A model generated the notes under the pieces. The model saw only the letters and a program-made list of their open reading frames with translations. It was not told the DNA's origin and ran no database searches. DNA of 45,277 nucleotides from Minisyncoccota bacterium (GTDB lineage: Bacteria; Patescibacteriota; Minisyncoccia; Minisyncoccales; JAQTVQ01), in contig JBBABQ010000002.1 of assembly GCA_041657565.1 (NCBI GenBank), positions 1 to 45,277 on the forward strand, in the 5' to 3' direction. How positions within the stretch are numbered: position 1 is the stretch's first letter; every line of letters begins with the position of its first letter. Below are positions 5,712 through 33,322 of this stretch, piece by piece. Both the position numbers and the translations under genes were made by a program.

Positions 5712-7118
5712 ATGAAGATCACTTTTTTCGGAGCGGCCAGGAATGTGACCGGCTCGAAGCATTTGATACAGACCCAAGGGTTCAATCTGCTTTTGGATTG
5801 CGGAATGTATCAAGGGAGAAGAGACCAGTCCAACCAGTCGAACAGGACCCTTCCTTTTTCAAGCAAGGATATAAATGCCGTCATCCTTTCGCACGGGCAT
5901 GTGGACCATAGCGGGCTGCTGCCAGTTTTGGTAAAGGAGGGATTTATGGGAAGGATCTATTGCACCGGCCCGACCGCCGAGATCACGAAGTATCTTTTAG
6001 AGGATTCCGCTTCCATCCAGGAGAAGGACTGCGATTATTTTAACAGCCACCTCAGAGAAGGAGAATCTCCGATATCTCCGATCTATACCAGCAACGAAGC
6101 GGAAAGAACTTTCGCTTATTTCGAGCCGGTCTCTTATTTCAACCGGAGCAGCGAATGGACGGAACTGAATAAAAATATCCGTTTCAAATTTTATGATGCG
6201 GGACATATACTCGGATCGGCGATAACTTTTTTGGAAATAAAGGAAGGGGGAGAGACAAAGACGCTGGTTTTTACGGGAGATCTCGGAAGAGAGAACCTTC
6301 CCATTTTGCGTTCGCCGGAAGCCGTGGAGGAAAAAGCCCAAACAATGATCATGGAATGCACTTACGGGGCAAGGGTCCATCGGCCGATCGGAGAGGTGGC
6401 GGAAAGCTTGAAAGAAGCCGTCCATTTTGCCATCCGGAAAAAAAGCAAGATAATCGTTCCGGCCTTCGCGCTCGGCAGGGCTCAGGAGCTTATTTACATA
6501 ATCCATAAGCTTATAGACGAAAAATGCATCCCGAAGATCCCGATCTATTTTGACAGCCCTCTTTCCCAAAATCTTACGGCGATCTTTGCCAGATCGGCCA
6601 AATATTTCGACGAGGAGTTTTGGGAAGATTTCGGAAATCGCAGGGAAAGCCCCTTTTCTTTTGAGAATCTTCATTACGTCAGCTCTCTCGAAGAATCAAA
6701 AGCCATAAACAGGAAGCAGGGCCCTCTTATGATCATTGCCGCTTCCGGGATGGCTGAAGGCGGCAGGATATTGCACCATCTTAAAAATAGCATTGGCGAT
6801 CCGAACAGCATGGTTCTTATTACCGGTTTTCAGGCCGAGAACACCCTCGGCCGAAAGATCCTTGAAGGGGTAAGTCCGGTCAGGATATTCGGCTGGAATT
6901 ACGACGTGAGAGCCAAAGTCGCCGTGCTCAACGAGCTTAGCGCCCATGCCGATCAAAAGGACCTTTTATCGCGCGTTGAAGAGACCAACGGGTTGGAAAG
7001 ATTGTTTCTGGTCCACGCAGAGATATCCCAAGCCATGGCTTTTAAGGATCTGGCAGGGAGTTCTTTCCCCGGGCTTCCGATAGAGATCCCGGAGCTTGGG
7101 CAGACGTTCGAAGTATGA
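5712..7118 (+). CDS. MBL-fold beta-CASP ribonuclease (RNase J/CPSF-like)
   Basis: 'ILSHGHVDHSG' metallo-beta-lactamase motif, a beta-CASP-like middle region and a C-terminal 'ELSAHAD' motif. Confidence 0.85.
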   Translation: MKITFFGAARNVTGSKHLIQTQGFNLLLDCGMYQGRRDQSNQSNRTLPFSSKDINAVILSHGHVDHSGLLPVLVKEGFMGRIYCTGPTAEITKYLLEDSASIQEKDCDYFNSHLREGESPISPIYTSNEAERTFAYFEPVSYFNRSSEWTELNKNIRFKFYDAGHILGSAITFLEIKEGGETKTLVFTGDLGRENLPILRSPEAVEEKAQTMIMECTYGARVHRPIGEVAESLKEAVHFAIRKKSKIIVPAFALGRAQELIYIIHKLIDEKCIPKIPIYFDSPLSQNLTAIFARSAKYFDEEFWEDFGNRRESPFSFENLHYVSSLEESKAINRKQGPLMIIAASGMAEGGRILHHLKNSIGDPNSMVLITGFQAENTLGRKILEGVSPVRIFGWNYDVRAKVAVLNELSAHADQKDLLSRVEETNGLERLFLVHAEISQAMAFKDLAGSSFPGLPIEIPELGQTFEV

Positions 7119-7296
7119 TCTTTTGCCGCTGGAAGCTTTTCCACAGTTGATCGTTTCTCTCTATGGCGAAAGGACGGCTTTCTGGTAAAATAAATGTAAG
7201 ATCGCCGGCCGAAAATAAATTGATCGGACAGGAAAGAGAGATCGGGTGCCGGCCGTATTCTTTATTTTAAAAATAATTTTTTAAGAGGATATTTTT

Positions 7297-9879
7297 ATGC
7301 AGAATAAAATAGCCAGATCTCTTTTCTTGCTGGCATTGGCCGGTTTCGGTTTTGTTTTGTTCAATGCCAAAGATCTTTCTCTGGCCAACTCGACCGCAGT
7401 TTCGGATATAAGCGTTTCCGTTTCCCCTTCTTCCGTCTACGTCGGAGGCATGGTGGAAGTGGCCGTATCGATGATCCCCGGAACCGTTTTTTCGGCGGAT
7501 TCCATATCCGTAAAATTGGCCAGCCCTTCGGCTTCCGATTATGTCCTTTTAAAAGATGTGAAAAAGGATTCTTCGGGAGTTTGGCGCGGGCAAATAACCA
7601 TCCCGTTGGAAGCCGAACTGGGAACGTGGAAAGTATATTTTGTCCAGGCGACGGATGCGGCGGGAGTTGTGAAGAATTATTATTACGACAGCATAAATGT
7701 TAATTTTTCCGTTGTCGGCCCTGATGGCAACGGCGGAGGCACGGTCTCTTCCTGCGATTTTGTTTATTCCGATTGGTCGGAATGCCAGAACGGTCTTCAG
7801 ACGAGAACGGTCCTCTCCACGTCGCCTTCCGGATGCAATGCGGGCACGGCTGTTTTGAGCCAGGCTTGCAGCGTCTGCACTATCACATACTCGAGCTGGA
7901 GCAATTGCGTAAACGGCCAGCAGAGCCGGACCATTGCCAGTAAAGAGCCGGCCGGATGCGTTGTGAGCGGGTTGGCCCCGGTCATGACAAGAGTTTGTAC
8001 GGTCTGTAATAGCTGGCAGTATTCGGATTGGGGCGTCTGCGCAGACGGCAGGCAGTCCAGGAAGATATTATATAGTTTTCCCGCCGGTTGCGTTGGGGGT
8101 AATCCGGAAATTTTAACTAGATCCTGTGAAAGCTCTTCTTGCCTGGATGAATGGACTTGCCATGCGTGGGGGGAGTGCGTGAACGGGGTTCAAAAAAGAG
8201 ATTGCAGTATTTCTTTTGATTGTTTAAGCTCGGAAGATAAAGCGCCCGAAATAGAGCAAGCTTGCATATCCAGTCCGACATCGACCGTGCCTTGCCAATA
8301 TGGATATTCCGAATGGGGCGTTTGCGATAACGGCAAGCAAAGGCGGACCATCGCAAGCAAGACTCCTGATGGATGCGTTGGGACGGTGGATAGCGCTTAT
8401 TTGGAAAGATATTGCACGGCAACTACGTCTTCTTTGCCGGCTTGCGTCTATACTTACGGCGCTTGGAGCGATTGTTCGAACGGGAAGAAAACGAGATCCG
8501 TGGTTTCGACCTATCCGGAGAAGTGTTTGTCCGGGAATGCGATCACTGAGGCGGAATGCGAAGACCTGCCGGACTGCACTTCGGAGGATTGGAAATGCGG
8601 AGAATGGAGCGTTTGTAATTCCGACCGAAGGCAGTACAGGAGGTGTTCATTGGATTCAAATTGCGTTTCCGCTTCTGCCGTAAAACCGGCTCTTGAGCAA
8701 ATTTGCGTTCAGCCGCAAGCTTCTTCAACGGCTGGCGGAGCGCAGGCCAGTGCAATAATCCCGGCGACAGGAACGACGGGAGAAGTTCAAGATGAATCTT
8801 GCGTCCGGGCCGAGCTGAAAGACCAGGGAGATTGCCAATGGTATTTGTATAAATTCAAAATAGCCGAAGAATGTTTGGGAAAAGGATTGGGCGATCAAAA
8901 TAAATGCCGGGAATATTTCTTGGCCAAATATGGAAAGCCTCTGAAGTGCCAGGGAATGAGCGATGAAAAATGCGATTCTTTGATCAACGAAATAATTTTA
9001 TCGGATCTGAAGAATGTTATCGTTCCGGAGATCAGGCAAACTTTAGCCGAGCTTTCCGGCAATACCGCTATGGCCGACGGAGAGAACAGGACGCTGGCCG
9101 TAAATATCGGGGATAAAGAAGGGGGGACGGTTTCCATCAGAGAAGTGAAGTTGGAGGGAATGCCTCTTTCCCGGTCGGGCGGCCGGGTTGCGGTTTCTTT
9201 GCTCCCCACGGTTGCCACCAGCCAGCAAGAAACCCTTTCGCCGGTAGCGATCGGTTTTGATTCTAACGGCAACGGCGTTCCGGATGACGCCGAAGGCCGC
9301 CTGGGTTCTTTGCCGTCGGCGGATCGGGATTCCATCACCAAAGAACAGCTGTCCGCCTTAAGCGGGATCGATCAAGCCTTGATCCGAGGAAAATCTCTGG
9401 AGCAGCCGAAATTCGGCAATGCCAGTTCGAGCGGATATTTAACGGTTTTATCTATAGGGAACGCGGTATCCGCAAGCGGCGGCGATACGGGAACTCTTAA
9501 GTTTCAGGGAAAAGCTTTGCCTGGACAGGTTGTCACTTTGTTCGTTTACAGCCCTATCCCGATAGTCTTGACCGTGAAGGCGGACCAAAACGGTAATTGG
9601 ATCTACGATCTTGATAAAACCTTGATCGACGGCACCCATGAGGTTTATGCCGTGATCAACGACGAAGAAGGGCGGATAGTGGAAGCCAGCTTGCCGGCCC
9701 CGTTCTTTATCCAAGAGGCTAAAGCCGTTACGGTCAATGATTTTGTGAAGACCCAGAGCGCTGCGGCGGTTCCCGACCAATCGGCCAATTTCATAACTTT
9801 TTATTTGCTTGGGGGAGGAGCGTTCATCCTTATAATCGTCGTAGCTTTCCTGCTCTTTAGGAAAAGAGCGACAGAATGA
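7297..9879 (+). CDS. large secreted, C-terminally membrane-anchored surface protein with Cys-rich repeats and Ig-like modules
   Basis: Signal-like N-terminus 'SLFLLALAGFGFVLF', seven ~40-aa Cys repeats, and a C-terminal TM 'FITFYLLGGGAFILIIVVAFLLF' followed by RKR. Confidence 0.85.
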   Translation: MQNKIARSLFLLALAGFGFVLFNAKDLSLANSTAVSDISVSVSPSSVYVGGMVEVAVSMIPGTVFSADSISVKLASPSASDYVLLKDVKKDSSGVWRGQITIPLEAELGTWKVYFVQATDAAGVVKNYYYDSINVNFSVVGPDGNGGGTVSSCDFVYSDWSECQNGLQTRTVLSTSPSGCNAGTAVLSQACSVCTITYSSWSNCVNGQQSRTIASKEPAGCVVSGLAPVMTRVCTVCNSWQYSDWGVCADGRQSRKILYSFPAGCVGGNPEILTRSCESSSCLDEWTCHAWGECVNGVQKRDCSISFDCLSSEDKAPEIEQACISSPTSTVPCQYGYSEWGVCDNGKQRRTIASKTPDGCVGTVDSAYLERYCTATTSSLPACVYTYGAWSDCSNGKKTRSVVSTYPEKCLSGNAITEAECEDLPDCTSEDWKCGEWSVCNSDRRQYRRCSLDSNCVSASAVKPALEQICVQPQASSTAGGAQASAIIPATGTTGEVQDESCVRAELKDQGDCQWYLYKFKIAEECLGKGLGDQNKCREYFLAKYGKPLKCQGMSDEKCDSLINEIILSDLKNVIVPEIRQTLAELSGNTAMADGENRTLAVNIGDKEGGTVSIREVKLEGMPLSRSGGRVAVSLLPTVATSQQETLSPVAIGFDSNGNGVPDDAEGRLGSLPSADRDSITKEQLSALSGIDQALIRGKSLEQPKFGNASSSGYLTVLSIGNAVSASGGDTGTLKFQGKALPGQVVTLFVYSPIPIVLTVKADQNGNWIYDLDKTLIDGTHEVYAVINDEEGRIVEASLPAPFFIQEAKAVTVNDFVKTQSAAAVPDQSANFITFYLLGGGAFILIIVVAFLLFRKRATE
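7753..8706 (+). repeat. seven tandem ~40-aa Cys-rich repeats (coding), thrombospondin type-1-like pattern
   Basis: Pattern C-x4-5-[YW][SG]xW[SG]xCxNGxQxR-x7-10-C-x10-14-C, e.g. 'CDFVYSDWSECQNGLQTRTV...GC...AC' and 'CQYGYSEWGVCDNGKQRRTI...GC...YC'. There are 5 copies of one subtype and 2 of a second ('DEWTCHAWGECVNGVQKRDC', 'EDWKCGEWSVCNSDRRQYRRC'). Confidence 0.85.
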
Positions 9880-11243
9880 TCATGGCTGGAAAAACCCATT
9901 CCAAAATAAAATTTTTACAGGATAACAAACAGGTTGTCTATTCTCTTATTTTGATGATCGTTATTCCGGGCGCGCTGATCTTCAATACGTGGCTTTTGTC
10001 CGGATATTTCAGGAACACGGTAGACCAGAGCATCCACGATAAGGCTATCGCCATAGGCCTGTCGATCAATACGTCTTTGGCCGACAAGCTGGATTCTCCC
10101 GAAGCCGTACAATCATTTATAGATAACTGGCAGAAATACAGCGAAGAAACGAAAATGCTGGATGTAATGTATTTGGAGAAAGACAGCTTTAAGCTGGTGG
10201 CCAGCATCGACAAGGAAAGGGTCGGGGAGATCGATAGCGATCTGCCGATCGATCCGGCGGCTTGCATGATCTCTTGGAAAAACGGCAGGCCGCTCGCGCA
10301 GAAAGTTTTTTCGCAGGGAAGCAACAATCCTTATTGGCTTGTGTTGATGCCGTTGACCGATCTTCAGGGAGAAAAGAAGGCCCTTTTGGCCATGGAATTT
10401 TCGACCGATTTTGTCAGCTTCAATCTGATGGGCGCCCTCGTCAAATCTTATCTTATTTTGATGCTTACGGTAGTTTTGATAATCCTCCTTTTGTACGTTA
10501 ACTCCCATCTTTTCGAGTATTCGATCCTTTACAACAAGATCAAAGAGATAGACGCGATGAAGGACGATTTTATCTCCATCGCTTCGCATGAGCTTAGGAC
10601 CCCGGTCGTCGCTATCAAAGGATTCGCTTCTATGATCATAGAAGAGTCTCAAAGTTTGGCGCTGAACGAAAAAATGAGGGAATATGTGGGGATAATCAGC
10701 GCCTCGGCCGATCGTTTGGCCATGCTGATAGAAGACCTCCTGAATGTCAGCCGCATCGATCAGGGGCGGTTTAAAATGGACCTTAAAGAAATAGATGCTT
10801 GGCCGGTCATAGAAGAAACATTAAAGGAATTTACGCCTCAGGCCAATGAGAAAAAATTGGCTTTATCTTGCGTTTTGGAGCCGGGTTCTAAAACTATCGT
10901 CTTGATAGACAGGGACCGTTTTAAGCAGTCCCTGATAAATGTCATTGGCAACGCCGTCAAGTATACACCTTCCGGCAGCGTTGAGGTTCGGGCCAGAAGC
11001 AAAGGGAAGAGCTTTACCGTTACCGTCAAAGATACGGGGATAGGAATGACGGCGAAAGAAAGGGAGCATTTGTTCGATAAATTTTATCGCATCAAGAAAA
11101 AAGAAACGGAGGATATTATCGGAACCGGCTTGGGCCTTTGGATAACCAGGCAAATGATCGGTCTGATGAAAGGGAGCATATCTGTCGATTCGATAGAGAG
11201 GGTCGGCAGCCAGGTAACCATAGAGCTGCCTTTGGCCGGCTGA
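9876..11243 (+). CDS. sensor histidine kinase (2 TM, extracytoplasmic domain, HisKA + HATPase_c)
   Basis: H-box 'SHELRTP', N-box 'NVIGNAVKYT' and G-boxes 'DTGIGM'/'GTGLGL'. The ATGA overlap with the upstream gene implies coupling. Confidence 0.9.
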   Translation: MIMAGKTHSKIKFLQDNKQVVYSLILMIVIPGALIFNTWLLSGYFRNTVDQSIHDKAIAIGLSINTSLADKLDSPEAVQSFIDNWQKYSEETKMLDVMYLEKDSFKLVASIDKERVGEIDSDLPIDPAACMISWKNGRPLAQKVFSQGSNNPYWLVLMPLTDLQGEKKALLAMEFSTDFVSFNLMGALVKSYLILMLTVVLIILLLYVNSHLFEYSILYNKIKEIDAMKDDFISIASHELRTPVVAIKGFASMIIEESQSLALNEKMREYVGIISASADRLAMLIEDLLNVSRIDQGRFKMDLKEIDAWPVIEETLKEFTPQANEKKLALSCVLEPGSKTIVLIDRDRFKQSLINVIGNAVKYTPSGSVEVRARSKGKSFTVTVKDTGIGMTAKEREHLFDKFYRIKKKETEDIIGTGLGLWITRQMIGLMKGSISVDSIERVGSQVTIELPLAG

Positions 11244-11468
11244 CCTTGACTTTATTGCTATTTTATTTTGAAATGCCGGTTTCGGGCCGAAGAATGGAAA
11301 AGTATTGACAGGAGCTTTTAAAAAGAATATCAGGTTTAATAAGGCAAATTTAAAAACACGGAAATCTCTTGATGTTTGTACGGCTGTTGATCTAGGGTCG
11401 GAGCTGGTTTTAAGCTTTTTAGGCTAAAGGTCGGACGTTTAATAAAAATTAATTCAGAACAATATCAA

Positions 11469-11546
11469 ATGAAATTTGTCTTCAAAAAGGTAAAGTTATC
11501 CGCTCTTTATGAGATCAAAGCGGCTTGTCAAGATTGTCATTTCTAG
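11469..11546 (+). CDS. unannotated 25-aa ORF 'MKFVFKKVKLSALYEIKAACQDCHF', candidate RiPP precursor peptide
   Basis: ATG ORF below the 60-aa track cutoff. The N-half is basic and helical and the C-terminus has a CxxC. A 15-bp-stem terminator follows 6 nt later, and the rSAM/PqqD operon is immediately downstream. There is no clear SD. Confidence 0.4.
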   Translation: MKFVFKKVKLSALYEIKAACQDCHF

Positions 11547-11552
11547 TGGATG

Positions 11553-11595
11553 ATGCAAGACAAGAGTGTTGGTACTCTTGTCTTGCATTTTTTTT
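11553..11595 (+). terminator. very strong rho-independent terminator/attenuator
   Basis: Perfect 15-bp stem ATGCAAGACAAGAGT/ACTCTTGTCTTGCAT with a GTTGGT loop, followed by T8. Confidence 0.9.
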
Positions 11596-11611
11596 ATATC
11601 TTGTTTTGAAT

Positions 11612-11983
11612 ATGTATTCCCTCTATCTCTTATCGGAGAACGTCGGTTTGCGCAAAGAAAAAAAAGGCGGAGTGCTTCTCCTGAGGAATAAAGAAGACAA
11701 TTCTTTATTTTTTTATATACCGGACGATTTTGGGATTTTTTTAGAAATGAAGGAAGGGGGCCGCTGTCTTGGCGTCGATCTTTGCAAATTCAAAGACGCG
11801 GGCCGGATCATTCTGTTTTTGTCTTATATGATCAAGAACGGCATATTGGTTCACAAAAAAGATTGCTCCAAAAAAAGCGGTTGCGGCGCCAAATTCGTCG
11901 AGCTCAAGTCTGCCCCCAAGATGATCAGCCTGTTCATAACTCCAACCGTCCATTTCAGAAGATATTACGGATATGGCAACTGA
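11612..11983 (+). CDS. hypothetical protein (123 aa from ATG 11612), first gene of the rSAM operon; coding status uncertain
   Basis: The ORF-track start at 11525 (TTG) runs through the terminator hairpin, so I moved it to the first ATG. It overlaps the rSAM start by 11 nt. It has 5 Cys and the C-terminus 'HFRRYYGYGN'. I recognise no family. Confidence 0.3.
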   Translation: MYSLYLLSENVGLRKEKKGGVLLLRNKEDNSLFFYIPDDFGIFLEMKEGGRCLGVDLCKFKDAGRIILFLSYMIKNGILVHKKDCSKKSGCGAKFVELKSAPKMISLFITPTVHFRRYYGYGN

Positions 11984-12998
11984 TAATTTTAAATTAAAGT
12001 CTCCTCTTAAGGTGACCTTGAACGTTACCAACAGGTGCAATTTCAAGTGCGTCCATTGTTATAACGGCTCTTCATCGGGATGGGAAGGAGAAGAGTTGGG
12101 TTTGGCGGAAATAAAATCCCTCTTGAAAGAGCTTAAAAAGATGGAAGTTTTTTTGATATCCGTGAACGGCGGCGAACCTTTTTTGAGGAAAGATATTTTT
12201 GAGATACTGGAAGAGATAAACCGCCTTGGTTTTGTTTCCAATATAAATACGAATGCCTCATTGGTCACGCCGGAGATCGCCAAGAGGATGTCGGAATTGG
12301 GTTTTAAAAGCGTAGACGTCTCTTTGCACGCCGATAACAGAAAGAATTTTTTACGGTTTACGGGGTCGGAATTATTCGACCAAACAGCCGCCGGGATCAA
12401 AAATCTGATCAAGGCGGGAGTTCCTCCGAGCATCGCTTTTGTAGCTACTTCCGTGAACATCAGCTGGGCGTCGGACGTTGTAAAAACGGCCGCGAACCTG
12501 GGAGTAAGATCCATGCACACAATAGTCCTGGTCGAAAGAGGCAGGGCGGCCGGGAGCGGCCTGACCGTGAAAATGGCGGACTTGAAAAAAGCTTACGACA
12601 AGCTCATCAAGCAAGGGGAAAAATATAAGGTCGATCTCTTTTTGGAATGTCCGTTCAACTTGCACGAAGGGATCGCTTCCTACGGGATGGAGGATATTGA
12701 GATGGATGGAGGCTGTTTCGGCGGAAGGTATTTAGCTTGCGTCCAGGCGAACGGAGACGTTACGCCTTGCGCCCTTTTTCCCGATTACGTGGTCGGGAAC
12801 ATCAAACAAAAAAAGTTTTTCGATATTTGGAATTCTTCGGAGATGTCCGCGTTGGAAGGAGGAAAGTATGAACTGCCGGAAGGATGCGGACGCTGCGAGA
12901 TATTGGCAAAATGCCATGGCGGATGTCCGACATCAAGCTATTCTCCGGAGGGGTTCGTTCCGGACCATTTCTGCGTAAAAAACAAAAATAATAATTAA
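11973..12998 (+). CDS. radical SAM enzyme with C-terminal SPASM domain (peptide-modifying type)
   Basis: 'CNFKCVHC' CxxxCxxC cluster and 'NGGEPFL'. C-terminal block 'GGCFGG...ANGDVTPC...GNI...IW...CGRCEILAKCHGGC'. Confidence 0.9.
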   Translation: MATDNFKLKSPLKVTLNVTNRCNFKCVHCYNGSSSGWEGEELGLAEIKSLLKELKKMEVFLISVNGGEPFLRKDIFEILEEINRLGFVSNINTNASLVTPEIAKRMSELGFKSVDVSLHADNRKNFLRFTGSELFDQTAAGIKNLIKAGVPPSIAFVATSVNISWASDVVKTAANLGVRSMHTIVLVERGRAAGSGLTVKMADLKKAYDKLIKQGEKYKVDLFLECPFNLHEGIASYGMEDIEMDGGCFGGRYLACVQANGDVTPCALFPDYVVGNIKQKKFFDIWNSSEMSALEGGKYELPEGCGRCEILAKCHGGCPTSSYSPEGFVPDHFCVKNKNNN

Positions 12999-13008
12999 TA
13001 TATCTGAT

Positions 13009-13281
13009 ATGGCAAAAATAACATTCAATGAAGATCTTTTTTCCTTGGTCCCCTCGCCGGAAGATCCGGGAGTGGCTTTCGTTTTTAATAAGAAGGACGG
13101 TTCCATCTTCCAGATCGAAGGGGTTACCAAAGAGATAATAACCGGGCTGAAAGGCAAGAAAAAGGAGGAAGAATCTCTTGTCGACGCTTATATAGCTAAA
13201 TATAAAATGGGCGCCAAGGATGTAAAAAGTTTCAGATCTTTTTTGGCTAAAGTTAAAAAAGCCAGAGTTATCATTAACTGA
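13009..13281 (+). CDS. PqqD-like peptide chaperone / RiPP recognition element
   Basis: 90 aa. 'GVAFVFNKKDGSIFQIEGVTKEIITGL...SLVDAYIAKY...DVKSFRSFLAKVKKARVI' follows the PqqD-family pattern. It sits between the two rSAM genes. Confidence 0.7.
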   Translation: MAKITFNEDLFSLVPSPEDPGVAFVFNKKDGSIFQIEGVTKEIITGLKGKKKEEESLVDAYIAKYKMGAKDVKSFRSFLAKVKKARVIIN

Positions 13282-13288
13282 AAAGACC

Positions 13289-14275
13289 ATGCCAGCCTCC
13301 AAGGAAAAAACGAAATTTTATATCCAATGGCATCTTTCCGACAGGTGCAATTTAAGATGCAAGCATTGCTACGTTTCGGAGAGGAAGACGCACCTGCCTT
13401 TACCCAAGTTAAAAGACGGCATCGACAACGTGTTAAGGCCTGTTTCCAATTGGGTTGACGAGATCAGCGTTTGTTTGTCGGGAGGGGAGCCGTTTTTATA
13501 TCCTGACCTGGCAGAGATAGTCCTTCATCTTAAAAAATGGAAAAAGGTCAAAAAAATAATGTTTACCTCCAACGGGACGCTGGCCGATAAAAAACTTTTA
13601 GGCAAGATAGGGAAGCATATCGATAATATCCAAATAAGCCTGGAAGGAGGAAAAGAGGCGAACGATCAAATAAGAGGAGGCGGAGTCTACGACCTCGTAA
13701 AGAAGAATATTCCCGTATATAGATCGTTGGGATGCAAGATCGCTGTTAACATGACGGTTCACAAACTCAACTATAAGGAGATCCCGGCGGTTATAAAGTT
13801 TTGCGAGGACAATAAAGTCGATATTTTCGCAATCTCCCGCCTTGTTCCCATCGGTAGCAACAATGAGGTGGCGAAATTAATGCTTTCCAAGAAACAAACA
13901 GAAGAGATATATTCCGGCCTGGTTTTTTTGTCGAAAAAAAAGAAGCTGAAATTTTCTTTTAACAGAACCTTATGGAACATCATCGACAAAAAGATCGGCC
14001 ATCCTTGTTCTGTCGGATTGAACGCGGTTGCGATATTGGCGGACGGGACGCTTTTGCCTTGCCGCAGGCTGGAAATACCGATAGGGAATTTTTTGAACGG
14101 TGATTTTGTCGACGTTTGGCTAAACTCCCCCGTTTTGAATAAATTGAGAGATCGGGGGAAAATAAAAAAATGCGGCTCTTGCGAACATTTGGAAAAATGC
14201 GGAGGATGCAGGGCCGTAGCTTACGGAAAAACCGGGGATCTTTTATCAGAAGATCCTCAGTGTTTTAAACTATGA
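13289..14275 (+). CDS. radical SAM enzyme with C-terminal SPASM domain (second maturase)
   Basis: 'CNLRCKHC' and 'SGGEPFL'. C-terminal block 'CSVGLN...ADGTLLPC...IGNF...VW...CGSCEHLEKCGGC'. Confidence 0.9.
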   Translation: MPASKEKTKFYIQWHLSDRCNLRCKHCYVSERKTHLPLPKLKDGIDNVLRPVSNWVDEISVCLSGGEPFLYPDLAEIVLHLKKWKKVKKIMFTSNGTLADKKLLGKIGKHIDNIQISLEGGKEANDQIRGGGVYDLVKKNIPVYRSLGCKIAVNMTVHKLNYKEIPAVIKFCEDNKVDIFAISRLVPIGSNNEVAKLMLSKKQTEEIYSGLVFLSKKKKLKFSFNRTLWNIIDKKIGHPCSVGLNAVAILADGTLLPCRRLEIPIGNFLNGDFVDVWLNSPVLNKLRDRGKIKKCGSCEHLEKCGGCRAVAYGKTGDLLSEDPQCFKL

Positions 14276-14784
14276 GCATCTTTCCCAGACATGTTTCTGC
14301 GGGAGACAACGTCATTATCCATGTGAAAATGATGAATCTTTCTTCCGTCTGCTTGCCGGTCAGTTTGGATACTTATATCCAGAATAAAGACAGAGGATCA
14401 AAAAAATGGATAGTACGTGAAGGCTTTTTCCTCCTCCCTCCGGCCGAAGACGGGAAAGAAGGGGTTGTTGAAAGGTATTTTTCCGTTGCTACCGACGGGA
14501 AGATGCCGCTTGGGAGGTACGATTGCTTCACCAGTATCAAATATCTGGACAGGAAAAGCATGTCTTTGACCAAAAAAGACGACCATTTTTTTCTTGAAGA
14601 GATAACCATTTCGGTGGAAGGAAGCTCGATCATATTAAAAAACAGTTCTCCGGTCGCCGCCGGCGTTAAAATATACCGTATTGGGGGGAGTGCCACAAAA
14701 AAAATAAGGGGGCTGGGGAAGATCAAATTTCCGAGGGTAGGGTTTCTTTATGCTGTCTACGCCAACAATAGCATATTGACCTGA
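14272..14784 (+). CDS. hypothetical protein (170 aa), translationally coupled to rSAM-2
   Basis: ATGA overlap with 13289..14275. No signal peptide. The sequence looks beta-rich ('VSAGDNVIIHVKMMNLSSVCLPVSLDTYI' is CARDB-like). No family recognised. Confidence 0.6.
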   Translation: MSIFPRHVSAGDNVIIHVKMMNLSSVCLPVSLDTYIQNKDRGSKKWIVREGFFLLPPAEDGKEGVVERYFSVATDGKMPLGRYDCFTSIKYLDRKSMSLTKKDDHFFLEEITISVEGSSIILKNSSPVAAGVKIYRIGGSATKKIRGLGKIKFPRVGFLYAVYANNSILT

Positions 14785-14812
14785 TATTGCGGCCGCATCT
14801 TCCCTCTCGGGC

Positions 14813-14838
14813 AACCGTTTCCTGCAGGGCGGTTTTTT
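14813..14838 (+). terminator. possible terminator of the rSAM operon
   Basis: Imperfect hairpin AACCG...CCTGCAGG...CGGTT followed by T6. Confidence 0.4.
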
Positions 14839-14894
14839 ATCCATAGAACAGAGCTGTTTGCTTTGAACGGGTTTTTTGAGCTATATTTAAATCA

Positions 14895-16181
14895 ATGGAA
14901 AATCACAGTTTGTTCGATAAGGAAGAGGTCGGCCAGGAGGTCGTTTTTTCGGTGTCGGAATACATCGAGTTTTTGAATTTGAAGATAAAGCCTTTCGAGG
15001 TGAAGATCGTCGGCGAGGTCGGCCAGGTGCAATTCGGTCCGACCGGCCATGTTTATTTTTCTCTCAAAGACGAAAAAGGAGGAGCGATGATCAATTGCAT
15101 AATTTGGAAATCGAGCTATCGGACTTACGGTATCGCGCTGAAGGAAGGGATGAAGATCGCGGCTGTCGGCCGGTCCGAGATATACGCGCCGTCGGGCCGG
15201 TTGTCGTTCGTCGCCCGGATGATCTCTTTGGCCGGAGAGGGGGCGTTAAAAAAGGAATACGACCGCATAAAAGCCCTGTTGGAAAAGGAGGGGATATTCG
15301 CCGAAGAAAAGAAGAGGCCTTTGCCCCGCTATCCCCACAAGATCGGCGTCATAACTTCCCGCCAGGGAGCGGTGATCGCTGATTTTTTGAACAATTTGGG
15401 AAAATTCGGCTTCAACGTGAGGATGATCGATTCGAGGGTCGAAGGCCAGGAGGCGGTGTCGGACCTGCTGGCGTCCATCAAGTCTTTCCGAAAAAAAGAC
15501 ATAGAGGTTCTGGTCGTGATGCGCGGCGGCGGTTCGATGGAGTCGATGATGGCTTTCAACAATGAATTATTGGTCCGCGAGATAGCTACCTTTCCTTGTC
15601 CGGTGATAGCCGGGATCGGCCACCATAAAGATGTCCCCTTGGCCGCTTTGGCCGCGGACGCGATGGTCTCTACCCCGACGGCGGCAGCCAATTTGCTTGG
15701 CGAATCCTGGCAGAAGGCGGCGCTTCTTTTGGAACGCAGCCAGCGTCAGATAATTTCCAGCTACGAAAGGACCCTAAACAGTTCCAATATGCTTTTGCAA
15801 AGATCTTTGTCGAAGATAAAGGAATTGCATAGCCGCATTATTGGCCAGTACAGGGAGATGGAAAACAACTTGAGGCTGTTCCTTCAAAAGATCGACCAGG
15901 GTTTGGCAGCGGCCAGGATCGAGATAAAAAATAATTTTGGCAGATCTTGCAGTTCCTTTTCTTCGATGTTGAAGGCCGCGGTCCGGCAGCTGGAGTACGC
16001 CCAAAAAACAACAGCCCTTAATGATCCAGAAAGGCAGTTGAAGCTGGGCTATAGCATCGCTTCTTGCAAGGGAAAGATATTGCGAAGCGTTGCCGGAGCC
16101 AGCGAGGGAGAAGAAATGGACCTGAGGCTGTCGGACGGGGCCATCTCTTCGGAAATAAAAAAGGTTAAAAAGGATGTTTAA
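14895..16181 (+). CDS. xseA: exodeoxyribonuclease VII large subunit
   Basis: N-terminal OB fold ('FSVSEYIEFLN...VKIVGEVGQV...GHVYFSLKD'), 'ITSRQGAVIADF', and a coiled-coil C-terminus. Confidence 0.9.
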   Translation: MENHSLFDKEEVGQEVVFSVSEYIEFLNLKIKPFEVKIVGEVGQVQFGPTGHVYFSLKDEKGGAMINCIIWKSSYRTYGIALKEGMKIAAVGRSEIYAPSGRLSFVARMISLAGEGALKKEYDRIKALLEKEGIFAEEKKRPLPRYPHKIGVITSRQGAVIADFLNNLGKFGFNVRMIDSRVEGQEAVSDLLASIKSFRKKDIEVLVVMRGGGSMESMMAFNNELLVREIATFPCPVIAGIGHHKDVPLAALAADAMVSTPTAAANLLGESWQKAALLLERSQRQIISSYERTLNSSNMLLQRSLSKIKELHSRIIGQYREMENNLRLFLQKIDQGLAAARIEIKNNFGRSCSSFSSMLKAAVRQLEYAQKTTALNDPERQLKLGYSIASCKGKILRSVAGASEGEEMDLRLSDGAISSEIKKVKKDV

Positions 16182-16578: not shown

Positions 16579-17520
16579 CTATCCCCACGGGAATTCCCTT
16601 CCGAAATGGCCCCAAGCCGATGTCCGGCGGAATTTTATTTTTCCCAGGCTGAGGAACTCGTAAATTGCTTTAGGAGACAGATCATAGCCGATTATCTTTT
16701 CTTCTTTGCCGTCTATCTCGGCGACAGCCATTACCGGTTCTTTTTTTCCGATGGCGTAGGCAAGTTTGGTCCTGACGGTTTTCGCGCCACTTTTTTTCAA
16801 CAGATCGACGGCGATGCGGCGGGCCATATAGGCCCCGCTGCGGTCGACCTTGGTCCAGTCCTTGCCGGAAAAAGAGCCTCCTCCAACGCCGATCTCCGGG
16901 CCGTAGTTATCTATCATTATTTTTCTCCCGGAAAGGCCGGAATCCGCGTCAAACCCTCCCATCTCCCATTCGCCGGCCGGGTTGATCAGATATTCTTCGG
17001 ATTTTATCAAAGCGCAGACCGCTTTTTTGAGATCTTCCGTTTTTGTTTTTTGGAAGCTGGCGACGACGGTTTTTATCCGGCCGTCTTCGATCGTCACCTG
17101 CGTTTTCCCGTCGTAGGGAAACTGGCTGTAGAGTTTGTTGCAAAGCTTGCGGGCAAGCTCATATTCGAGGGGCATGAAATTATTGGTCTCGCTGGTGGCG
17201 TAGCCGATCATTATTCCCTGGTCGCCGGCGCCTCCGTTATTAACGCCTTTGGAAATGAAAGGGCTCTGCTGAGAAACGTAGATCTTCACGTTGTATTTTT
17301 GGCCGAGGATCTTTTTGATCGTGTCCTCGATGTTCAGTCTTGCTTCGCTGGTCACCTCGCCGGAAACGGAAATATTGTCATGGCCGCCCATGATCTCTAT
17401 CGCTACCCGGCTTTTCGGGTCGAGTTCCAGAAAAGCGTCCAGCAATATGTCGGCCAGGTAATCGCATAGCTTGTCGGGATGCCTTGGAGAAACGAATTCG
17501 CACGTTTTTGTGTTTGCCAT
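16579..17520 (-). CDS. metK: S-adenosylmethionine synthetase, compact 313-aa form
   Basis: 'GAGDQGIMIGYA', 'GGGSFSGKDWTKVDRSGAYMAR' and N-terminal 'SPRHPDKLCD'. It is preceded by a SAM-I riboswitch. Confidence 0.9.
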   Translation of the reverse strand: MANTKTCEFVSPRHPDKLCDYLADILLDAFLELDPKSRVAIEIMGGHDNISVSGEVTSEARLNIEDTIKKILGQKYNVKIYVSQQSPFISKGVNNGGAGDQGIMIGYATSETNNFMPLEYELARKLCNKLYSQFPYDGKTQVTIEDGRIKTVVASFQKTKTEDLKKAVCALIKSEEYLINPAGEWEMGGFDADSGLSGRKIMIDNYGPEIGVGGGSFSGKDWTKVDRSGAYMARRIAVDLLKKSGAKTVRTKLAYAIGKKEPVMAVAEIDGKEEKIIGYDLSPKAIYEFLSLGKIKFRRTSAWGHFGREFPWG

Positions 17521-19617: not shown

Positions 19618-20643
19618 ATGGTATCTCTAAGCCCATACTCGATCCCTCCGCTGGCAATTTCCATTCTGTTCCTGTTTTTGGGATCGGCAATTTATTTTAA
19701 GAACAAAAGATCGGCCGCCAATACTATTTTTGCCTTGCTTTCTCTCGTCACTTTTTGGTGGCAGTTTTCCTGGTTTGTGCTTTTCAATGTCCAAGATCCG
19801 GCCTTGGCTTCGATCCTTGTCAAGGTCGGTTACATGGGAATAATATTTATTCCCGTTTTTTTCTACCATTTTTTTCTTGCGTTCATGGGAAGGGTCAAGG
19901 GGCTAGATAAATACGCGCTGTATTTTATGTACGCAGCCAGCCTTTTTTTCGAGATATCTTTGTTTTCCACGAATTTTTTTATCCAAGGATATTACGAGTA
20001 TTTTTGGGGATTTTACCCCAAGGCCGGTATTCTGCATCCGGTATATCTGTTTTTTCTGACAGCCGTTTCGCTTAGGTCTGTTTTTCTTCTCTACAAGAGC
20101 TACCTCGAAGAGAAAGGCGGAGGTACCATAAAATCCAAGCAGACCAAGAATCTGCTGATCGGTCTTCTCATTTATTTCTCGGCTTCCACGGACTTTTTGG
20201 TGAATTACGGGATCGAATTCTACCCGCTCGGATTTATTTTTGTTTTCATCTGTTTGTCCATCATCGCTTACTCGATCTCCAAATATCATATGTTCGACAT
20301 AAGGGTCATTTTGACCGAAATGCTTGTCGGCATTATGGCGGTCGCTTCTTTTGTTGAGGCGCTTCTTTTTCAGGATCTTTGGACCAGGATCTTCGGCTTT
20401 GGTATTTTTGCCCTGCTGTGCGTTATAGGCTATTTGCTGACCAGGTATACCTATCGGGAAGTGCGCGCCAAGGAAAATTTCGAACAAATGGTCCAAGAGC
20501 GCACTAAAGAACTGGAACAGAGCAAGAAGGTCTCCGAGGACCGCGCCGCCGAGCTGGAGAAATGGTACAAGCTCACCATCGGCCGGGAACTCCGCATGGC
20601 CGAGCTCAAGGATAAAATAAAGGAGATGGAGGATAAGAAGTAA
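19618..20643 (+). CDS. multi-TM receptor-like protein (histidine-kinase N-terminal 7TM-like region) with conserved coiled-coil tail, no output domain; paralog 1 of 7
   Basis: About 9 hydrophobic helices, then the tail 'ERTKELEQSKKVSEDRAAELEKWYKLTIGRELRMAELKDKIKEMEDKK'. Confidence 0.8.
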   Translation: MVSLSPYSIPPLAISILFLFLGSAIYFKNKRSAANTIFALLSLVTFWWQFSWFVLFNVQDPALASILVKVGYMGIIFIPVFFYHFFLAFMGRVKGLDKYALYFMYAASLFFEISLFSTNFFIQGYYEYFWGFYPKAGILHPVYLFFLTAVSLRSVFLLYKSYLEEKGGGTIKSKQTKNLLIGLLIYFSASTDFLVNYGIEFYPLGFIFVFICLSIIAYSISKYHMFDIRVILTEMLVGIMAVASFVEALLFQDLWTRIFGFGIFALLCVIGYLLTRYTYREVRAKENFEQMVQERTKELEQSKKVSEDRAAELEKWYKLTIGRELRMAELKDKIKEMEDKK

Positions 20644-20654
20644 ATTTTAAAAAT

Positions 20655-21689
20655 ATGAATTTTTTCGCGATAATTTGTTTTATATGCGCTTCATTGGCTT
20701 TTTTTGCCGGTTATTCGGTTTGGATGTCCGGGTTCAGAAAAAAACTTAACCAATCTTGGGCGCTTTTTAATTTTTCCATAGCTATTTGGATGATCGGCTT
20801 GGGAGAAACAATGAACGTTGACAACGAACTCTCAGCTTTGGTGGCCCAGAAGATCCTTTATATAGGCACGATAATGATCCCTCTCTCTTTCTCTTATTTC
20901 GCCGCCTTGCTGTCCAAAAAAGAAGAAAACGCGGAGAAGCTTCTTTACATAAATTCTTCAGCAGCCGCCTTTTTCCTGGCAACGCTTTTTTTGGGAAGGT
21001 TTTTTATAGAAAAAATATTAGAAAGGACCGATTTCGGTTATTTTCCCATACAGGCCGGAACGCTTTATTATCCTTTTCTTGCTTGGTTCGCGGTGATGGT
21101 CATCTATGGTTTTGTCCTTTTGAGGGGCGGGTTGAGAAACAAGGCCGCTAGCGCGGTCGAGAAGCAGCAGATCAGCTTTATGATGTGGGGGGCGATGGTG
21201 GGATTTATCGCCGGTTCCGTTAATTTTTTGCTCGACTTCGGGATAGTTATCCCTCCGTTCTATAATCTTTTGGTCCCTTCCTATCTTTTGTTCGTCGGAT
21301 ACGCGATAGCGACCAAGCAATTTTTCGGGATCAAGGTGATCTTTACGGAAATGCTGGTGGTCGGGATGGGAATGATATTGATGGTTTTGCCGTTCTTCAT
21401 GCCGAATTTTATTTTGCAGGTTGTAATGGTGATGGTTTTCGTTGTTTTCTGCCTGTTCGGCTATATGCTGATAAGGTCAATGTTGAAAGAGGTCAGACAG
21501 AAAGATATTCTCGCCGGGATGGTCCAGGAGCGGACCAAAGAGCTCGAAGCGAGCAAAAAGGTTGCCGAAGAAAGGGCGGCCGAACTGGAGAAATGGTATA
21601 ATCTTACCATCGGCCGGGAGCTCCGTATGGCCGAATTGAAAGGCAAGATCAAAGAGATAGAGGATAAAAATAATCAGGCCAATAATTAA
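20655..21689 (+). CDS. same family, paralog 2
   Basis: Tail 'ERTKELEASKKVAEERAAELEKWYNLTIGRELRMAELKGKIKEIEDKN'. An 11-nt gap separates it from paralog 1. Confidence 0.8.
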   Translation: MNFFAIICFICASLAFFAGYSVWMSGFRKKLNQSWALFNFSIAIWMIGLGETMNVDNELSALVAQKILYIGTIMIPLSFSYFAALLSKKEENAEKLLYINSSAAAFFLATLFLGRFFIEKILERTDFGYFPIQAGTLYYPFLAWFAVMVIYGFVLLRGGLRNKAASAVEKQQISFMMWGAMVGFIAGSVNFLLDFGIVIPPFYNLLVPSYLLFVGYAIATKQFFGIKVIFTEMLVVGMGMILMVLPFFMPNFILQVVMVMVFVVFCLFGYMLIRSMLKEVRQKDILAGMVQERTKELEASKKVAEERAAELEKWYNLTIGRELRMAELKGKIKEIEDKNNQANN

Positions 21690-21696
21690 AATATTT

Positions 21697-22713: not shown

Positions 22714-22716
22714 AAT

Positions 22717-32953: not shown

Positions 32954-33322
32954 ATGACACAGAAAGTTTTATTGGCGGAAGATGACCCGTTTCTTATCGA
33001 TATTTATACAACCAAGCTGGCGAACAGCGGATTCGACATGGCCGTGGCAAAGACGGGAGATGAAGTCCTGTCCGGCCTGAGAGAGCGGATGCCGGACATA
33101 TTGCTTTTGGATATAGTGCTGCCGGGAATGTCCGGATGGGAGGTCCTCTCCGAGATCAGGAAGGATCCGAAATTCAACGATCTGAAAATAATAATTCTTT
33201 CCAATCTTGGCCAGAAGAACGAAGTGGAAAAGGGGCTGGAAATGGGGGCTGTCGGTTATTTGGTCAAAGCTCATTACACTCCGACCCAGATAGTCGAAGA
33301 GATAAGAAAGATATTGGGATAA
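32954..33322 (+). CDS. stand-alone response-regulator receiver domain (CheY-like)
   Basis: 'LLAEDDPF', phospho-Asp context 'ILLLDIVLPGMSG', 'IIILSNL' and 'GYLVKA'. There is no output domain. Confidence 0.85.
   Translation: MTQKVLLAEDDPFLIDIYTTKLANSGFDMAVAKTGDEVLSGLRERMPDILLLDIVLPGMSGWEVLSEIRKDPKFNDLKIIILSNLGQKNEVEKGLEMGAVGYLVKAHYTPTQIVEEIRKILG

Follow-up and report, generated by a model that had tools for sequence, protein, structure and literature searches.

We found a compact operon on the forward strand of the window, a 45,277-nucleotide stretch of DNA from a Minisyncoccota bacterium. It begins with the gene for a 25-aa precursor peptide (11469..11546, +; MKFVFKKVKLSALYEIKAACQDCHF), which is separated from orf1 by a 17-bp hairpin and a T-run (11552..11597, +), identified as terminator- or attenuator-like by a terminator scan. 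On the same strand follow orf1 (11612..11983), which encodes a small partner protein of 123 aa counted from its ATG; rSAM-A (11973..12998; 341 aa), a radical SAM/SPASM gene; orf3 (13009..13281; 90 aa), which encodes a second small partner directly 5' of rSAM-B; rSAM-B itself (13289..14275; 328 aa), the second radical SAM/SPASM gene; and orf5 (14272..14784; 170 aa), whose AF2 fold is that of a tandem Ig-like β-sandwich protein. There is an 11-nt overlap between orf1 and rSAM-A, a 10-nt gap between rSAM-A and orf3, a 7-nt gap between orf3 and rSAM-B, and an ATGA overlap between rSAM-B and orf5. The scan also found a terminator-like hairpin and T-run 3' of orf5 (14813..14834, +), which is the probable end of the operon. 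The next gene downstream is xseA (14895-16181; Exonuc_VII_L in the Pfam search), which is unrelated.

An ORF check agreed with an earlier note on this DNA in all coordinates and spacings of the five ORFs. That note had placed the operon start at 11305, which we found to be a 40-aa TTG ORF that is not conserved, and it had overlooked the conserved 25-aa gene. The hairpin 3' of this gene and the sister clusters described below were also absent from it.

Recurrence of the operon and its precursor gene

At least six independent CPR/Patescibacteria contigs carry the cassette (L001, L002, L004, L005, L012, and, in part, L026). The flanks differ among copies and include ThrRS, a pilin-like gene, and other genes; the recurrent gene order is more than chance. 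A histidine kinase and a surface protein lie upstream in the window and had prompted the idea of a signaling role; the histidine kinase neighborhood is not conserved among the copies, and the idea has no support. As first noted for this operon, the CPR cassettes contain no protease, exporter, or immunity gene. L001 carries an additional methyltransferase, whose best match (65 bits) is the daptide RiPP methyltransferase; RiPP clusters typically vary in their tailoring genes in this way.

Through orf5 homologues we found a distant sister cluster, itself uncharacterized, in low-GC human-gut contigs (L015, L017, L018, L021, and L023). Its order is peptide, ~180-aa protein, rSAM, ~74-aa protein, rSAM, rSAM, orf5-like protein, M3/PepF-like peptidase, Amidohydro_2, and GNAT. 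The gut-type cluster thus shares with the CPR cassette the succession of peptide, partner, rSAM, small partner, rSAM, and, further on, an orf5 homologue, as well as the conserved orf5 N terminus (MSIFPKKIT.GEN.IIH) and a C-x-x-C peptide ending, here C-x-x-C-[D/S]-[I/V]-N. In contrast to the CPR cassette, it has a third rSAM, the PepF-like peptidase, Amidohydro_2, and GNAT, and its proteins are only 24-31% identical to those of the window.

The precursor ends in C20-x-D-C23-H-F, and its putative leader covers approximately residues 1-18. The gene lies at the equivalent position in L001, L002, L004, L005, L012, L026, and L027, with a leader close to FVFKKVxLxAxYEIKA and a core of x-C-x-[D/N]-C-H-[F/E]; C-x-x-C-H is present in all 7 CPR peptides. 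A conserved 25-aa, Cys-containing ORF precedes every copy; the earlier note had named the lack of a conserved substrate ORF in homologous loci as grounds for giving up its reading. The peptides are 22-33 aa long, and their C-terminal core is almost invariant across phylum-level distances. With 64-88% identity, against 24-67% for the other products, the precursor is more strongly conserved than anything else the cassette encodes. Third codon positions vary in 21 of 25 codons and second positions in 7 of 25, and there are 139 synonymous codon differences, a coding-type substitution pattern. Nucleotide identity is 73% within the ORF versus 34% upstream of it. The precursor occurs once in the window, where 0 matches are expected by chance. 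We saw no evident Shine-Dalgarno sequence upstream of the 25-aa ORF, and the peptide matched no NCBIfam precursor model and belongs to no Pfam or NCBIfam family.

The hairpin after the precursor gene has a predicted RNA fold of -25.9 kcal/mol (z = -6.0), and none of 200 shuffled sequences was equally stable. Hairpins of different sequence occupy the equivalent position in L002, L004, L005, and L012 (z, -3.9 to -5.5), as they do in the gut-type L017 and L023. The hairpin may act as a leaky terminator between the precursor and the maturation genes, so that the precursor would be transcribed in excess.

The two radical SAM/SPASM enzymes

Both enzymes have the complete cluster motifs that had been described for them. 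In rSAM-A these are CNFKCVHC at residue 22, CFGG..GDVTPC at 248, CGRCEILAKCHGGC at 305, and Cys334; in rSAM-B they are CNLRCKHC at residue 20, CSVG..GTLLPC at 240, CGSCEHLEKCGGC at 295, and Cys325. The Pfam Radical_SAM model scored 90.1 bits for rSAM-A and 74.4 bits for rSAM-B (gathering cutoff, 29.5), and the SPASM model scored 49.8 and 34.5 bits (gathering cutoff, 21.5). Among solved structures, rSAM-A is closest to SkfB, PqqE, and CteB, and rSAM-B to PqqE (top PDB match), SuiB, SkfB, and CteB. Only six close homologues of rSAM-A were found (48-57% identity), and the next, at ~31%, are GeoRSP-named proteins.

No NCBIfam equivalog model reached its cutoff for either enzyme. The best match of rSAM-A was NirJ2 (159 bits; cutoff, 500), followed by the Lys-Trp cross-linking WgkB (148 bits); that of rSAM-B was rSAM_ACGX, which aligned end to end with 177 bits (cutoff, 400). 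Neither Pfam nor NCBIfam has a family for the precursor, orf1, orf3, or orf5, and the earlier statement that the operon matches no named pathway stands.

For rSAM-A and all three gut-type rSAMs, the top NCBIfam matches included NirJ2, AhbD, and NirJ, and C-x-x-C-H is the canonical heme-c attachment motif. The enzymes could be tetrapyrrole or other cofactor enzymes of the AhbD/NirJ type, with the peptide as a heme- or metal-binding microprotein. However, the scores were 3- to 4-fold below the equivalog cutoffs, AhbD for rSAM-A among them, and peptide maturases scored similarly. The window contains no other tetrapyrrole gene, the gut-type peptides lack the His, and the precursor has no signal sequence, yet heme-c attachment is extracytoplasmic. 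We consider this explanation very improbable.

Partner proteins and orf5

Among 5.8 billion proteins, orf1 falls into 7 clusters, all unnamed. Its AF2 model (pLDDT, 80.3; pTM, 0.74) has a β-rich/helical N-terminal domain, approximately residues 1-81, that is possibly RRE-like. Foldseek returned nothing significant for this model; its weak matches include the RREs of TbiB1 (5v1u_C; TMt, 0.53) and ThcOx. A strict RRE is βββ-ααα (PMC12710340), and the orf1 model does not have this arrangement. Judging by the gene arrangement, orf1 is translationally coupled to rSAM-A.

The orf1 C-terminal tail, P-x-L-I-x-LFITPTxHFRRYY, is the most conserved stretch of the protein, with L107, F108, I109, P111, T112, H114, R116, and Y119 invariant in 7 sequences, and it comes after a low-confidence linker (residues 86-92; pLDDT, <50). 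The tail could itself be the substrate, alone or beside the 25-aa peptide, and orf1 a long-leader precursor; rSAM-A, whose start orf1 overlaps and whose second-best match is WgkB, might then form, for example, aromatic-to-Arg/His C-C cross-links of the ryptide or cyclophane type. In contrast, the ~180-aa gut-type counterpart lacks the tail. In the AF2 model the tail contains strands and a helix, which would also suit a mere docking element. The role of substrate is already well filled by a separate small peptide that is better conserved and has a hairpin of its own, and we regard modification of the tail as improbable.

The 90-aa orf3 had been called PqqD-like, which sequence models did not confirm: PF05402 matched with E=0.064 and 14 bits (cutoff, 23.4) over positions 4-66 of its 67, and this subthreshold match appeared in 1 of 10 orf3 family members and in neither of the 2 family consensus sequences scanned. 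Neither partner passed the PqqD/RRE models, and we detected no relationship between orf1 and orf3 or of either to a PqqD-bearing rSAM protein. A search of 1.84 billion representatives found only orf3's own small family. It is conserved in all cassettes, with a 69- to 74-aa counterpart in the gut-type clusters, and is a candidate RRE.

The orf5 family has 36 clusters, with no names, no Pfam domain, and an invariant MSIFP[K/R] N terminus. AF2 gave a confident all-β model of two Ig-like β-sandwiches (pLDDT, 94.9; pTM, 0.86), for which the best Foldseek matches were RbmA, transglutaminase β-barrel domains, and chaperone-usher chaperones (E, 1e-6 to 1e-4; TM, 0.3-0.48). With the exception of L025, orf5 homologues always accompany rSAM/SPASM genes and a Cys peptide, and longer homologues are extended at the C terminus by a segment whose sequence pattern is RRE-like. 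We propose that orf5 is a peptide-binding accessory or scaffold.

Proposed pathway and named systems

This compact operon of an ultra-small (CPR-type) bacterium very probably makes a small, Cys-containing modified peptide. We think it likely that it is a self-contained RiPP-type operon with a 25-aa precursor, two rSAM/SPASM maturases, small partners, and an orf5 scaffold. The RiPP reading is supported because the nearest solved relatives of the enzymes are peptide-modifying enzymes and because the gut sister cluster follows the same logic. The RiPP-like peptide-maturation operon of the earlier note gains a precursor and keeps its enzymes, and its PqqD/RRE call and signaling idea find no support. 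We see it as a real, uncharacterized RiPP-type system, with a gene set outside every named pathway.

According to this model, the maturases lack N-terminal recognition domains of their own, and the small, translationally coupled protein encoded ahead of each (orf1 for rSAM-A and orf3 for rSAM-B) would present the leader peptide like a discrete RRE. Each enzyme would generate a 5'-deoxyadenosyl radical and modify the C-terminal core, and orf5 would serve as a nonenzymatic peptide-binding scaffold or chaperone. The most likely outcome would be intramolecular thioether cross-links of the sacti or ranthi type, a leading guess taken only from the two invariant Cys residues and analogy. The strongly conserved core and the absent exporter speak for a small, conserved product resembling a cofactor or signal rather than for a diversifying bacteriocin. 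The two chemically distinct modifications suggested in the earlier note remain conjecture, as does its retained cofactor-like product, with which the extreme conservation of the core would be compatible.

Mycofactocin (MftA/MftB/MftC) and PQQ (PqqA/PqqD/PqqE) systems resemble this operon in that the precursor has 22-30 aa and its C-terminal core is highly conserved, a small partner is encoded separately beside the rSAM/SPASM enzyme, and there is no exporter. These known cofactor pathways include MftE and PqqF, to which the PepF-like peptidase and Amidohydro_2 of the gut-type clusters would be a parallel. The product could be a peptide-derived small molecule or cofactor for intracellular use, its C-terminal residues reworked by the rSAMs and not cross-linked, and its core cut out by a protease from another locus of the CPR genomes or, in the gut type, by the M3 peptidase and amidohydrolase. 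Both enzymes align over the full length of the MftC and PqqE models, but below cutoff (137 and 93 bits versus 265 for MftC; 98 and 79 versus 381 for PqqE). These pathways differ in having a GVY or E-x3-Y core where the peptide here has C-x-x-C-H-F/E, and a single rSAM where there are two or three here. The partner fails PF05402, and the CPR cassettes have no MftD/E/F or PqqB/C/F genes. Analogues of MftD or PqqC, the redox enzymes that act downstream, are absent. The very sparse distribution (7 orf1 and 36 orf5 clusters) would also be odd for an essential cofactor, and we find this product rather unlikely.

The Haft-type orphan rSAM/SPASM systems ACGX-repeat (TIGR04340) and GeoRSP (TIGR04303) are best or near-best HMM neighbors; however, the scores fall well short of the cutoff, which is 400 in both models, and our peptide is neither an ACGX-repeat peptide nor a selenoprotein.

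Sacti- and ranthipeptide systems with two rSAM/SPASM maturases (thuricin CD TrnC/TrnD and ruminococcin C RumMC1/MC2; PapB, SkfB, and CteB) are a close parallel as well. No equivalog model is reached (PapB, 103 bits versus 340; SkfB, 67 versus 300; StsB, 126 versus 625), and the fused N-terminal RRE of SkfB, CteB, and AlbA is missing from both enzymes. The core here is only ~6-8 residues, with its two Cys at the extreme C terminus, and the operon has a tandem-Ig protein in addition but no protease or ABC exporter. Like this operon, these systems place a small Cys precursor beside rSAM/SPASM enzymes with two auxiliary-cluster motifs, and two of their enzymes, SkfB and CteB, belong to the best matches among solved structures. 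Two maturases per operon also occur among them (PMC12093266, PMC8188230).

The radical SAM cassette and its 25-codon gene

An earlier note, made from the sequence alone, had described five packed ORFs, and we reproduced their coordinates and spacings in the window. All five lie on the plus strand. orf1 (11612-11983; 123 aa) overlaps rSAM-A (11973-12998; 341 aa) by 11 nt, a 10-nt gap precedes orf3 (13009-13281; 90 aa), and a 7-nt gap precedes rSAM-B (13289-14275; 328 aa), which shares an ATGA overlap with orf5 (14272-14784; 170 aa), the last gene of the operon.

We defined radical SAM (rSAM)/SPASM enzymes by a CxxxCxxC motif and a C-terminal seven-Cys pattern (Cx9-15Gx4C ... Cx2Cx5Cx2-3C ... 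C), together with PF04055 and PF13186 scores above the gathering score. We found that rSAM-A and rSAM-B both carry the full Cys motifs and exceed the gathering scores of Pfam Radical_SAM and SPASM, which places them in the SPASM subgroup of the rSAM superfamily, as had been proposed. The SAM-cluster motif begins at residue 20-22 in both proteins, and thus a recognition domain is fused to the N terminus of neither. Close homologues of rSAM-A number only six in 5.8 billion clustered proteins (48-57% identity; one annotated Candidatus Absconditabacteria), and beyond these identity falls to ~31%.

The contigs bearing these homologues (L001, L002, L004, L005, L012, and L026, with L012 a Parcubacteria MAG) have the identical five-gene order. 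Their flanks vary and include a ThrRS gene, an opposite-strand pilin-like gene, or, in the window, a histidine kinase. Because the flanks differ, we consider the cassette to be the conserved unit, and the kinase and surface-protein neighborhood to which the earlier note had drawn attention is not part of it. Its observation that the operon lacks a protease and an exporter extends to the CPR cassettes. L001 has an additional class-I methyltransferase gene between orf3 and rSAM-B (6280-7047), with a daptide RiPP methyltransferase as its top NCBIfam match (65 bits, below the cutoff). We also noted a 472-aa ORF with no function assigned after orf5 in L001 (8537-9955). In the Absconditabacteria copy (L004 1919-2869, code 25), rSAM-B is 316 aa long and its SPASM motif Cx2Cx5Cx2C seems to be missing the initial portion, perhaps through true degeneration, perhaps as an artefact of assembly or gene calling.

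The gene content of the window is CPR-like, with housekeeping genes, a short MetK, and ThyX. The short S-adenosylmethionine synthetase gene (313 aa; 16579-17520, minus strand) is 1.8 kb downstream of the operon; other cassette loci lack this neighborhood, which we saw in same-organism contigs (L008) alone. The predicted surface protein (7297-9879) has 860 aa, one Big_13 domain, a C-terminal membrane anchor, and at least six copies of a ~35-aa Cys-rich module (C..Y.YS.WS.C.NG.Q.R....S.P.GC) for which we found no Pfam match. Seven paralogous genes, encoding ~340 aa each, form a tandem group of five and a later group of two (19618-24776 and 30814-32936); their sole match is the HisKA_7TM membrane region, and we detected no kinase domain in them. 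A stand-alone response-regulator receiver gene (32954-33322) follows the second group.

We found a 25-codon ORF ~65 to 140 nt upstream of orf1. The earlier RiPP-like call depended on a conserved substrate ORF in homologous loci, and this ORF is present in every CPR copy. The predicted peptides are MKFVFKKVKLSALYEIKAACQDCHF in the window (11469-11546), MTFVFKKVDLNAIYEIKANCTNCHE in L001, MKFVFKKVDLNAFYEIKAACQDCHF in L002, MQFVFEKVDLNAIYEVKASCADCHE in L004, MNFIFKKVDFDAFYEIKAACQDCHF in L005, MKFIFKRVNLDALYEIKATCSDCHF in L012, and MKFIFKRVNLDVLYEIKATCSDCHF in L026 and L027. The third codon position varies in 21 of the 25 codons and the second position in 7, and nucleotide identity is 73% within the ORF versus 34% just upstream. 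At every locus the peptide is the most conserved product, with 64-88% identity to the window copy compared to 24-67% for the other five proteins. Judged by these three measures, the 25-codon ORF is a real coding gene. An NCBIfam and Pfam scan of the peptides matched no family and no NCBIfam precursor model.

We read this ORF as the substrate gene; the precursor core is C-x-[D/N]-C-H-[F/E], with two invariant Cys. Codons 20 to 24 (11526-11540) encode C-x-x-C-H in 7/7 CPR precursors, and the peptides of the gut-type cluster described below have C-x-x-C-[D/S]. C-x-x-C-H is the canonical heme-c attachment motif.

Directly 3' of the precursor stop is a 17-bp hairpin with a T-run (11552-11597; -25.9 kcal/mol, z = -6). 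Other loci have hairpins of unrelated sequence at the same position. A precursor gene, an attenuating hairpin, and then maturases make up the classic RiPP operon layout. A second terminator-like site (14813-14834) closes the operon. No Rfam families were found in 10800-15200, and the spacer at 11244-11468 showed no conservation. The 40-aa TTG ORF at 11305, where the earlier note had started the operon, is not conserved and was ruled out as a part of it.

Small partner proteins and the orf5 family

The 90-aa ORF had been called PqqD-like. As an RiPP recognition element (RRE), we accepted either PF05402 above the gathering score or the βββ-ααα winged-helix fold, following the strict βββ-ααα definition of PMC12710340. 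orf3 scored 14 bits against the 23.4-bit PF05402 cutoff, so the PqqD-family call did not hold at the level of this model. Across 10 orf3-family members, the only PF05402 match was this one, and there was no match for the family consensus of orf3, of orf1, of the C-terminal domain of the gut 180-aa protein, or of the C-terminal extensions of long orf5 homologues. Since 26% of proteins from a PqqD-seeded Foldseek search lack Pfam annotation (PMC12710340), this failure is not decisive. We found that hhalign placed orf3 in register with P0083, a PqqD-bearing protein, but not significantly (E=0.078); orf1 against P0083 and orf1 against orf3 gave nothing significant. An exhaustive HMMER search of 1.84 billion representatives with orf3 returned its own family only and no bridge to PqqD, and the orf3 and orf1 profiles found nothing meaningful among PDB sequences.

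The orf1 family is tiny (7 clusters). For its N-terminal domain we looked for the βββ-ααα order and for structural resemblance to known RREs. The AlphaFold2 model of orf1 (pLDDT 80) has the order ββββ-α-β-(short α)-α-β; a flexible linker joins this part to the tail, whose sequence LFITPTxHFRRYY is conserved. Foldseek gave no match at E < 0.1 with this model; the only functionally coherent weak matches were the RREs of TbiB1 (TMt 0.53, probability 0.28) and ThcOx (TMq 0.35). An RRE role for orf1 and orf3 is thus plausible but unproven. We also weighed a reading in which the orf1 tail serves as another substrate. The idea that it is a vestigial rSAM N-terminus (β1 strand and cluster loop) was dropped when hhalign of orf1 against rSAM-A was not significant.

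orf5 is a member of a 36-cluster family that has neither annotation nor a Pfam domain. The N terminus is an invariant M-S-(I)-F-P, with K or R as the next residue in the sequences that we read, and H17, Y69, G81, Y83, S98, F106, N124, and S126 are invariant. The AlphaFold2 model is confidently all-β (pLDDT 94.9, pTM 0.86). Its top PDB matches, at E values of 1e-6 to 1e-4 and with modest TM-scores, are two-domain Ig/FnIII-like proteins: RbmA, transglutaminase C-terminal barrels, and chaperone-usher chaperones. From this resemblance we read orf5 as a probable non-enzymatic binding module. That orf5 is itself a Cys-cross-linked protein substrate is unlikely, since it has no invariant Cys. Longer homologues (253-297 aa) have an extra C-terminal stretch with an RRE-like sequence pattern undetected by Pfam. 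No relatives were found among viral contigs.

The most distant orf5-like protein, P0156 (297 aa), lies on L025 (6290-8502), a 44% GC contig that also encodes a TonB-dependent receptor. Upstream of it are a small ORF, MQNSSNKQALIAAILAAKAVGGTHCSNCGHCTATL, and the gene for a protein of 163 aa; an ABC ATPase gene follows it, and no rSAM gene is visible on this contig. The locus may be a third cluster type using the tandem-Ig module.

A gut sister cluster and its ThrRS neighbors

Searching with orf5, we found a distantly related cluster in low-GC (24-26%) human-gut contigs. In gene order, it comprises a small peptide ending in ...EEVVSVSCGTCDIN, ...SVSCGTCSIN, or ...ICTVKCMSCDVN; a protein of ~180 aa; an rSAM/SPASM enzyme; a protein of 69-74 aa; two more rSAM/SPASM enzymes; an orf5 homologue; a PepF/M3-like peptidase; an Amidohydro_2 protein; and a GNAT protein. 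None of its proteins reached an NCBIfam equivalog cutoff. It shares with the CPR cassette a peptide that has C-x-x-C at its C terminus, an orf5-like protein, and a small partner ahead of both the first and the second enzyme. This common logic supports the substrate assignment and shows orf5 to be a hallmark of the group.

ThrRS genes adjoin the cassette in two unrelated lineages. Among the CPR loci, ThrRS is the immediate upstream neighbor of the precursor gene in L001 (2538-4307), L012, and L026 (2259-4013), and L012 also has TyrRS downstream (synthetase genes at 738-2483 and 6340-7545). The adjacency is absent from the other cassette copies, including the window. Among the gut contigs, L017 (ThrRS genes at 368-2122, the paralogue, and 9237-10982) and L015 (107-1864 and 8975-10720) have, besides the canonical ThrRS, a divergent one immediately 5' of the precursor gene, and L021 (11284-14662) has ThrRS and TyrRS downstream. 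The gut paralogue has lost the editing-site HxxxH and CRGPH motifs and has intact zinc ligands. Co-transfer of ThrRS with the cassette was rejected, because the paralogue shares 33% identity with the CPR ThrRSs and 42% with the canonical copy on its own contig. The paralogue is therefore not CPR derived, and the adjacency arose independently. Together with the GNAT gene, it could hint at a product that targets an aminoacyl-tRNA synthetase and is paired with a resistance copy. Chance synteny would account for it equally well.

Proposed product and comparison with named families

Most likely, the small partners would bind the 25-aa peptide through its leader, and the two rSAM/SPASM enzymes would then modify the C-terminal C-x-[D/N]-C-H-[F/E] core. 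The solved structures nearest to the two enzymes are SkfB, PqqE, CteB, and SuiB; by analogy with these, and with two invariant Cys in the core, two thioether cross-links would be the leading guess. A small conserved product, cofactor- or signal-like, fits better than a bacteriocin, given the extreme conservation of the core, the CPR cassettes without exporter or protease, and the gut peptidase and amidohydrolase. A core better conserved than its enzymes suggests that the precise structure of the product is important.

We think it rather unlikely that the CPR two-rSAM cassette and the gut three-rSAM cluster jointly form a new class of RiPP or peptide-derived metabolite. Such a class would be marked by the "MSIFPK" tandem-Ig protein, in the role of a novel type of leader-peptide chaperone, and would yield a very small, highly conserved molecule derived from the C-terminal C-x-x-C, perhaps a cofactor-like compound or one that binds metal or heme (CXXCH). 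In view of the repeated ThrRS adjacency and of the editing-defective paralogue and GNAT in gut clusters, the product could instead be an antimetabolite against threonyl-tRNA synthetase, with the ThrRS paralogue as its immunity gene.

CPR/Patescibacteria genomes are tiny, and to our knowledge secondary metabolism is generally thought to be almost absent from them. A six-part cassette found from Parcubacteria to Absconditabacteria is thus a notable investment. The link to a three-rSAM cluster common in human-gut metagenomes provides a tractable entry point, since the index of the contig collection places one orf5 homologue in 112 blocks; our reading covered the 24 whose contigs are longest. The unannotated tandem-Ig family may give RiPP genome mining a novel kind of accessory protein, and with a candidate substrate in hand the chemistry is directly testable.

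The cassette belongs to none of the named families tested by NCBIfam. Consistently with the earlier statement that it matches no named pathway, no NCBIfam equivalog cutoff was reached, and no curated family includes the precursor, either partner, or orf5. A literature search found no paper describing this system.

A heme-enzyme clade or the anaerobic sulfatase maturases (anSMEs) had been named as placements that would contradict the RiPP-like call. For heme and heme d1 enzymes (AhbC, AhbD, NirJ, NirJ1, and NirJ2), we looked for NCBIfam equivalog scores at or above the cutoff (500-650 bits) with tetrapyrrole neighbors. The best scores were 159 bits (rSAM-A, NirJ2) and 137 bits (rSAM-B, AhbD), and the window has no tetrapyrrole genes. 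These sub-cutoff matches and a CPR core that is literally CXXCH led us to consider a non-peptide, tetrapyrrole role for the enzymes, but the scores are 3- to 4-fold below the cutoff and the gut peptides have no His, and we give this role a low probability. For anSMEs, which we defined by a model score above the cutoff and a C/S-x-P-x-R substrate motif in a sulfatase, no model was among the best 25 NCBIfam matches of either enzyme, and the cassette has no sulfatase gene or CxPxR motif.

The peptide pathways were compared likewise. Mycofactocin (MftC equivalog of at least 265 bits, MftA ending ...GVY, MftB, and MftD/E/F) was rejected on MftC scores of 137 and 93 bits for rSAM-A and rSAM-B, a precursor ending in CHF or CHE, and no MftD/E/F genes. 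PQQ (PqqE equivalog of at least 381 bits, PqqA with E-x3-Y, and PqqB/C) was rejected on PqqE scores of 98 and 79 bits and a peptide without E-x3-Y. An ACGX-repeat system (rSAM_ACGX of at least 400 bits and an ACGX-repeat precursor) was rejected at 177 bits, with peptides matching no NCBIfam precursor model. Sactipeptides have Cys-S to Cα thioethers and ranthipeptides Cβ/Cγ linkages, classes defined by product chemistry; in comparison, the cassette core has two invariant Cys, and similarity to PapB, SkfB, and StsB is below the cutoff. Overall, the cassette would work in the manner of the discrete-RRE rSAM/SPASM pathways to RiPPs or cofactors, namely those for sacti- and ranthipeptides, mycofactocin, and PQQ.
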